1,986 nt of DNA, taken from the NCBI RefSeq assembly GCF_003334385.1, contig NZ_QOWN01000104.1. One strand, given 5' to 3'. Positions 1 to 1,040 of this stretch are shown here, piece after piece (positions within the stretch are counted from its first letter, which is position 1; each line of letters begins with the position of its first letter). Origin of the DNA: Escherichia coli (GTDB taxonomy: Bacteria; Pseudomonadota; Gammaproteobacteria; Enterobacterales; Enterobacteriaceae). The notes beneath the pieces are model-generated. The model was not told the DNA's origin and searched no databases. It saw only the letters and a list, made by a program, of their open reading frames with translations. The translations under genes and the position numbers were made by a program.

Positions 1-1040
1 ATCTGGAACTTTTCCGGGAAAAGATAGGAAAAACGCATCTGGCAGAGGCGCTGTGGGCAGAGATTGACAACAGTCAGCTGAAGGACGAGATGGCGGAAAT
101 GCAGACCACCATCACAGAAACCCGCAATGAAATCACACAGACGGTCAGTAAAACGCTGGAGGACCAGAGCGCCACCATACAGCAGATACAGCGCGTGCAG
201 AAGGACACAAATGATGACCTTGCTGCACTTTACATGCTGAAGGTACAGAAAACAAAAAATGGCATACCCTATGTTGCCGGTATTGGAGCGGGGATTGAGG
301 ATACTGATGGCCAGCCCCTGAGCAACATACTGCTGCTGGCTGACCGTATTGCGATGATTAACCCGGAGGACGGCAACACCACGCCGTTATTTGTGGCGCA
401 GGGGAATCAGTTGTTCATGAACGATGTGTTCCTGAAGCGGCTGTTTGCGGTGAGTATCACCTCGTCCGGCAATCCCCCGACGTTTTCCCTGACGCCGGAG
501 GGCAGGCTGACCGCAAGAAATGCTGATATCAGCGGTAACGTGAATGCGAATTCCGGGACGCTCAACAACGTCACGATTAACGAGAACTGTCGGGTTCTGG
601 GAAAACTGTCCGCGAACCAGATTGAAGGCGATCTCGTTAAAACAGTGGGCAAAGCTTTCCCCCGGGACTCCCGTGCACCGGAGCGGTGGCCATCAGGGAC
701 CATTACCGTCAGGGTTTATGACGATCAGCCGTTTGACAGGCAGATTGTTATTCCGGCGGTGGCATTCAGTGGCGCTAAGCATAAGAGAGAGCATACTGAT
801 ATTTACTCCTCATGCCGTCTGATAGTGCGGAAAAACGGTGCTGAAATTTATAACCGTACCGCGCTGGATAATACGCTGATTTACAGTGGCGTTATTGATA
901 TGCCTGCCGGTCACGGTCACATGACGCTGGAGTTTTCGGTATCAGCATGGCTGGTGAATAACTGGTATCCCACAGCAAGTATCAGCGATTTGCTGGTTGT
1001 GGTGATGAAGAAAGCCACCGCAGGCATCAGTATCAGCTGA
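1..1040 (+). CDS. J: Host specificity protein J / central tail fiber, C-terminal receptor-binding part (5'-truncated by window edge)
   Basis: Open reading frame in the phase of position 3 runs without stops from the window edge ([34 protein letters not shown]...) to TGA at 1038-1040; the ORF track's Met at 90 is internal. The Gly/Asn/Ser/Thr-rich fiber-like sequence and its position immediately upstream of lom and stf match the lambda J-lom-stf order. Identification is by recollection, not alignment. Confidence 0.85.

Follow-up and report, generated by a model that had tools for sequence, protein, structure and literature searches.

Which outer-membrane protein does a prophage target when the receptor-binding end of its tail-tip protein J is in hand? 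We addressed this question for a 1,986-nucleotide stretch of Escherichia coli DNA (contig NZ_QOWN01000104.1 of assembly GCF_003334385.1), referred to here as the window. The window encodes the far end of J, the trimeric tail-tip protein of a lambdoid prophage; behind it come lom and the first codons of the side tail fibre gene stf. An earlier note, made from the sequence of the window, had recognized the C terminus of J at positions 1-1040, had described it as the determinant of host range, and had considered the receptor not deducible.

The distal end of gene J

On the plus strand, frame 3 runs without interruption from nt 3 to nt 1037 and is closed by a TGA codon at 1038-1040, giving 345 J codons plus the stop. 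This frame was identified as the 3' end of gene J (3..1040, plus strand), encoding the tail tip or central tail fibre protein, by translation, alignment with lambda J, matches to PDB and NCBIfam entries, and comparison with annotated relatives. The gene is truncated by the 5' end of the window, with its 5' part lying outside, and the start of the open reading frame listed as '90..1040' is merely the first in-frame ATG of the J frame. The 345 residues aligned over their full length with lambda J residues 795-1131, without large gaps (47% identity, E=6e-97). They also matched PHROG tail-fibre families and solved J fragments, including 9wca (E=1.7e-112) and 8xcj/8iyk (~1e-90). In the 1163-position NCBIfam model lambda_TipJ, the fragment spanned positions 814-1163 with a score of 525 bits, which is below the full-length cutoff of 1950 because only 30% of the protein is in the window.

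Several characters place the protein with lambda TipJ: homology to the C-terminal region of J that comprises the shaft, beta-prism, and receptor-binding domain (RBD); an Ig-like fold of the C-terminal RBD, as judged by AF2 modelling and Foldseek; and, in relatives, the gene order K-I-J-lom-stf and a J length within about 1130-1160 aa. In relatives that are 99.9% identical to the window, J is 1157 aa long (3474 nt with its stop codon), and the genes upstream are the tape measure gene, M, L, K, and I. The presence of the J C terminus at positions 1-1040 is thus confirmed, far beyond chance, with lambda J, PDB, NCBIfam, and PHROG matches all in agreement, and the view that this part of J determines host range matches all of the comparisons reported below.

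Domain names and lambda residue ranges were taken from PMC11101478 and transferred to the window using the lambda J alignment. By these offsets, the shaft covers about residues 22-75, the beta-prism about residues 76-198, and the Ig-like RBD about residues 199-345 (nt 597-1037). Residues 1-177 (3..533, plus strand), equivalent to lambda J ~788-963, thus hold the alpha-helical shaft and beta-prism of the central straight fibre. Residues 178-345 (534..1037, plus strand), delimited by allele comparisons and the AF2 model, constitute the exchangeable specificity module past the lambda J964 fusion point, with the last beta-prism layers and the RBD. In an AF2 model of residues 150-345, the RBD (residues 209-339) had pLDDT values of 78-95. 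The top Foldseek fold matches to the RBD model were 9wca, 8xck, 8xcj, and 9wcb, with E values from 2e-17 to 6e-16.

The window DNA was compared with BP-4795 and VT1-Sakai in 100-nt steps. BP-4795 was 93-100% identical to the window across nt 101-500 and 53-72% identical across nt 501-1000; VT1-Sakai was 55-71% identical before nt 500 and 93-99% identical across nt 501-1100. At the protein level, the block of residues 1-177 was 92.7% identical to BP-4795 J, 62% identical to VT1-Sakai J, and 45% identical to lambda J. The J shaft therefore reads as BP-4795 type and the receptor module as VT1-Sakai type, two separate mosaic blocks, and the sequence comparison clearly points to a sharp recombination joint near nt 500, inside J. 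This joint falls in a conserved NADISG...NVTINENC stretch. Window residue 178 corresponds to lambda J residue 964, the residue at which Brödel et al. (PMC11338833) fused their engineered gpJ chimeras. Since the joint coincides with the fusion point used by engineers, nt 500-1037 can be regarded as a natural exchangeable module. The same region, 500-1037, had been singled out for alignment in the earlier note, and the joint in DNA identity near nt 500-535 fits the start of the module.

Relatives of the window and the state of the prophage

Over its whole length, the window shared 99.9% identity with prophages of the E. coli strains EC2 and SCU-104 and of three SW0716 isolates, and 99.0% with the temperate, plaque-forming phage PhiR5_1. 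This DNA is annotated as 'gpJ / Lom / tail fiber N-terminal domain' both in the 99.9%-identical E. coli prophages and in PhiR5_1. PhiR5_1 (loci L002 and L011) has a lambda-type head module consisting of Nu1, A, W, B, Nu3, D, and E; the prophages of EC2 (L003) and SW071611 (L010) have an HK97-type head with the same J-lom-stf block. Because a 99% identical J-lom-stf block is found under different heads, the tail-tip block moves between otherwise different phages.

The prophage of the relatives adjoins btsS/btsR, also named yehU/yehV (L003 26930-29331, L004 7613-8453). The attachment region of the prophage VT1-Sakai/Sp15 by the same genes is common to it and to the closest relatives of the window, and its J-lom-stf context is like that of the window. 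VT1-Sakai differs from the window in the shaft upstream of nt ~500 (62% identity, versus 93% for the BP-4795 type). The EC2 and SW071611 prophages differ from VT1-Sakai in having an HK97-like head module and in being without stx in the 42 kb examined.

Many lambdoid prophages of E. coli are defective, and J could be a relic in such a prophage, which would form no virions, so that J would currently play no part in the host range of the source strain's prophage. Signs of decay do occur among the relatives, since in EC2 the genes for the major capsid protein and for tail fibre assembly carry frameshift annotations and J of VT1-Sakai is split by a mutation. However, the J frame in the window is intact, the 99.9%-identical SW071611 prophage is annotated as intact from terminase through tail fibre assembly with a full-length J, and PhiR5_1 forms plaques with the same J-lom-stf block. 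Since PhiR5_1 is plaque-forming with a module 98.8% identical to that of the window, the allele functions in virions. A defect in tail assembly, which the earlier note said would make its observation uninformative, is thus not what the relatives display: their J is intact, as is the head and tail set of SW071611. We consider a relic J in the source strain unlikely, although less so than the other alternatives discussed below.

Receptor class and variable loops

Module residues 178-345 were aligned with J alleles of known specificity. Lambda J, which uses LamB, and lambda h434 J, which uses OmpC, were both 43-46% identical to the window module (44.8% and 45.8%, respectively). A8 gpJ (PDB 9wca), with OmpC as its receptor, was 62.4% identical. 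Two alleles with no direct receptor assignment were far closer, namely VT1-Sakai J (98.2%, 165/168 residues) and PhiR5_1 J (98.8%).

Experimental receptor data for this group come from Brödel et al. (Nature 2024, PMC11338833), who grafted natural gpJ C termini from E. coli strains onto lambda J and screened on a ΔlamB recipient for variants that enter by another receptor. Their A8 and 1A2 chimeras delivered DNA into MG1655 ΔlamB ΔompC only with plasmid-supplied OmpC, whereas wild-type lambda J did not (PMC11338833). In the source data of that study, delivery by 1A2 was efficient with 20 of 23 natural OmpC variants and failed on OmpC G1 (the MG1655 variant), G2, and G40.

The published recoded GpJ 1A2 DNA (PMC11338833 supplement) contained OCR insertions and deletions and was aligned by frameshift-tolerant dynamic programming. 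Past the fusion point, VT1-Sakai and 1A2 were identical at 155 of 155 readable codons, and 1A2 is therefore the VT1-Sakai/Sp15 allele, an equation that assumes no further differences at the 13 codons unreadable by OCR. The window was identical to 1A2 at 152 of the 155 readable codons, and its module departs from 1A2 at three residues, with K in place of E at 261, R in place of K at 262, and S in place of T at 343.

On these alignments, the window module belongs to the 1A2/VT1-Sakai allele class, to which it is nearly identical downstream of lambda J964, with three substitutions. It falls outside the lambda LamB allele, with 44.8% identity over the module (versus lambda J 964-1132) and indels in the variable loops, and outside the A8 class, which at 62.4% identity has the same fold and other lengths in variable loops 1 and 2. 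The alignment with characterised J alleles proposed in the earlier note thus turned out to be informative: it recovers 1A2 at nearly every readable codon and assigns the receptor that the note had held to be beyond deduction, pointing to the OmpC-dependent 1A2/VT1-Sakai class and not to a LamB-binding allele. Identity of the C terminus to lambda J, the other circumstance that the note thought would rob it of interest, is only about 45% over the last 168 residues. As the best explanation of the evidence as a whole, the J protein of the window very probably docks OmpC, not LamB. We infer that this exact three-substitution sequence would behave like 1A2.

The feature belongs to an already known kind, with the receptor of the class assigned by experiment (1A2) and the sister allele A8 solved on OmpC. 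According to its PDB description, 9wcb captures A8 gpJ713 in the open state together with OmpC G17 from E. coli EDL933, and the entry includes an OmpC chain, which lends independent structural support to the assignment of the receptor. A8 (9wca, closed; 9wcb, open) shares with the window J its fold and trimeric central-fibre architecture, and 12 residues of its C-terminal strands are identical. Its first variable loop is four residues shorter than that of the window allele, and its second hairpin is six residues longer (NFNSNNQQSYW). A8 also differs in the OmpC variants that it accepts: it uses K-12 OmpC (G1, G2), which 1A2 does not, and is weaker on G55, G56, and G67 (PMC11338833 source data).

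Lambda h434 J, from phage 434, is the classical OmpC-using lambdoid J and has its module at the same position (receptor per PMC11101478). With 46% identity to the window module, it is no closer than lambda J and has other loop lengths. The h434 and window alleles are independent classes converging on OmpC, and both A8 and h434 reach OmpC through loops unlike those of the window allele. In the lambda J-LamB complex (PDB 8xcj; Ge and Wang 2024, PMC11101478), shaft, beta-prism, and an Ig-like RBD with four bottom loops follow in the same order, and the receptor-triggered opening is presumably as in the window J. The lambda module differs in receptor, in having 45% identity, and in variable loops that are unrelated in sequence and length.

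Hosts of related phages were also compared. Temperate PhiR phages with the same RBD class (88-99% identity) had E. coli C or ECOR13 as host in six of six cases and MG1655 in none of the six, which is circumstantial agreement with the failure of 1A2 on K-12 OmpC. A literature search on the name PhiR5_1 for receptor data gave unrelated papers only (the description by Brenes and Laub 2025 was outside its scope), and no pertinent receptor study emerged from a search on long-tailed Stx phages carrying this J. A 2026 receptor-prediction preprint was set aside, since it covers Drexlerviridae-type GpJ and not lambda-type RBDs.

In an alignment of nine alleles, four loops of the RBD varied in length (residues 218-231, 257-270, 288-290, and 316-329) and alternated with conserved loops (residues 240-245, 278-279, and 301-305). 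Such an alternation would be seen if the four variable loops are the bottom loops L1-L4, and on this basis residues 261 and 262 would sit in a bottom loop. The second variable loop, a hypervariable beta-hairpin of 14 residues (J residues 257-270; 771..812, plus strand) defined by the nine-allele alignment and the model, combines the lowest conservation with length variation. Its strands in the AF2 model are residues 258-262 and 265-269, and it is probably a receptor-contact loop. K261 and R262 (nt 783-788), the sole internal differences from 1A2, both lie in this hairpin; E261K is a charge reversal and K262R is conservative. The range of OmpC variants accepted by the window J is uncertain because these two residues sit in the probable contact hairpin. 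The charge-reversing pair K261/R262 may lie in the tip region of the hairpin and retune the recognition of OmpC variants, in which case the window J would be a natural switch of specificity inside its own class; we consider this unlikely. Such retuning could restore the use of K-12-type OmpC, or could allow use of the divergent porin encoded in the tail cluster of the relatives.

More broadly, the allele might belong to the OmpC class while K261, R262, and S343 shift its specificity to another OmpC subset, such as the K-12 type, or to a related porin (OmpF, PhoE, or one encoded by a prophage). In lambda, host range can be extended to OmpF by a handful of point mutations in J (cited in PMC11101478), A8 and 1A2 differ in the OmpC variants they accept, and the E261K charge reversal falls in the most variable hairpin. 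Yet 165 of the 168 residues are those of the VT1-Sakai allele, itself 1A2 at every readable codon, the K262R change is conservative, and the contact of the hairpin with OmpC is putative. Moreover, both versions of the hairpin are tolerated in otherwise identical modules (PhiR5_1, which has the 1A2 version, and VT1-Sakai), and we regard a shift of this kind as very unlikely. A LamB-binding allele working like lambda J, whose pairing with LamB is the textbook case and whose overall fold and domain order the window J shares, is extremely improbable, given that the module is just 45% identical to that of lambda J, that all four variable loops differ in length, and that the 1A2 module, with 152 of 155 readable codons the same, was selected on a ΔlamB recipient and is OmpC-dependent.

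Predicted docking on OmpC, prevalence, and neighbouring genes

With OmpC as the favoured receptor, adsorption may be pictured as follows. The last ~168 residues of J are an exchangeable module, and its Ig-like RBD would dock on the extracellular side of the OmpC porin trimer. The four variable bottom loops would insert into the porin, and the three RBDs would spread apart. This spreading would twist the beta-prism above and flip the helical shaft, so that the tail tip opens for DNA ejection. The side tail fibre may contribute a second adsorption step that depends on a surface glycan or a porin. Receptor-triggered RBD spreading, beta-prism twisting, and shaft flipping have been described for lambda J-LamB (PMC11101478), and the closed (9wca) and open (9wcb) structures of A8 imply the same opening mechanism. 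By analogy, we infer that one conformational mechanism is common to the window J, lambda J-LamB, and A8 gpJ-OmpC. The host range is predicted to cover E. coli strains with OmpC of the EDL933 kind and with most of the remaining natural variants, and the K-12 OmpC variant is probably outside it.

The 1A2 module is the J C terminus of the Stx1 prophage VT1-Sakai/Sp15 and of many Stx-converting and PPompW prophages. The class is very common: of 5,426 complete E. coli genomes, about 1,850 (roughly a third) contain the 456-nt RBD region at ≥95% DNA identity, and dozens of prophage records of the Stx1a, Stx2a, and PPompW kinds have it as well. For annotation, this means that prophages with this module, many of them Stx-converting, can be labelled as OmpC-targeting instead of being assumed to use LamB. 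The three-residue variant, which is the sole new detail of the window, offers a ready natural mutant for mapping the residues that set OmpC variant preference.

A porin gene is found in the tail cluster of the closest relatives. In EC2 (NZ_CP058571, L003 13834-14997), tail genes M and L are separated by a gene for a 387-aa porin, which lies some 6 kb upstream of the window, and SW071611 (L010) has the same M-L porin at the same position. The product scored 496.7 bits with the NCBIfam model 'porin OmpC', against a cutoff of 484, and the nearest phage-borne porins were 68.7% identical and located elsewhere in their genomes. The M-porin-L arrangement was present in 93 of 5,426 E. coli genomes; in some, the prophage that bears it is not the one with this J allele. 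The M-L porin gene is absent from PhiR5_1. We rejected the prophage-borne ompC-like gene as evidence about the receptor, since PhiR5_1 is without it and other genomes have it on a different prophage. The Lc porin of phage PA-2 is a precedent for a porin in superinfection exclusion. By analogy with PA-2 Lc, a porin moron beside an OmpC-targeting J may play a part in such exclusion. Past the tail fibre genes, on their downstream side, the relatives have a gene with a YadA C-terminal domain, a putative adhesin-invasin (L003 24142-25389; L002 12823-13896), which is possible virulence-associated cargo.

Downstream of J, the window contains lom (1108..1707, plus strand), which encodes a 199-aa outer-membrane beta-barrel of the Ail/Lom family (PHROG 108 'Lom', E=8e-95, and annotated relatives). 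Its product shares 41% identity with lambda Lom. Next comes the side tail fibre gene stf (1859..1986, plus strand), represented by its first 42 codons before the gene runs off the window; 28 of 38 residues are those of the N terminus of lambda Stf (orf-401). PHROG tail-fibre N-termini match this segment, which is labelled 'prophage tail fiber N-terminal domain' in the relatives.

A consensus scan for terminators identified a GC-rich hairpin with a T-run just past the J stop codon (1059..1083, plus strand) and a second hairpin with a T-run between lom and stf (1811..1850, plus strand). The window has two such terminator-like sites and shuffled sequences have 1.6, and because this is no more than shuffles give, the hairpins are treated as pattern matches only. 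A sigma-70 promoter scan of the window detected no sites, and an Rfam scan of the whole window at E≤1 detected nothing. The terminator-like hairpins at 1059-1083 and 1811-1850 bracket lom in a moron-like layout. The 151-nt spacer between lom and stf (1708-1858) also contains a short inverted repeat, GTTCATC...GATGAAC, at ~1754-1780, ahead of the second terminator-like hairpin.
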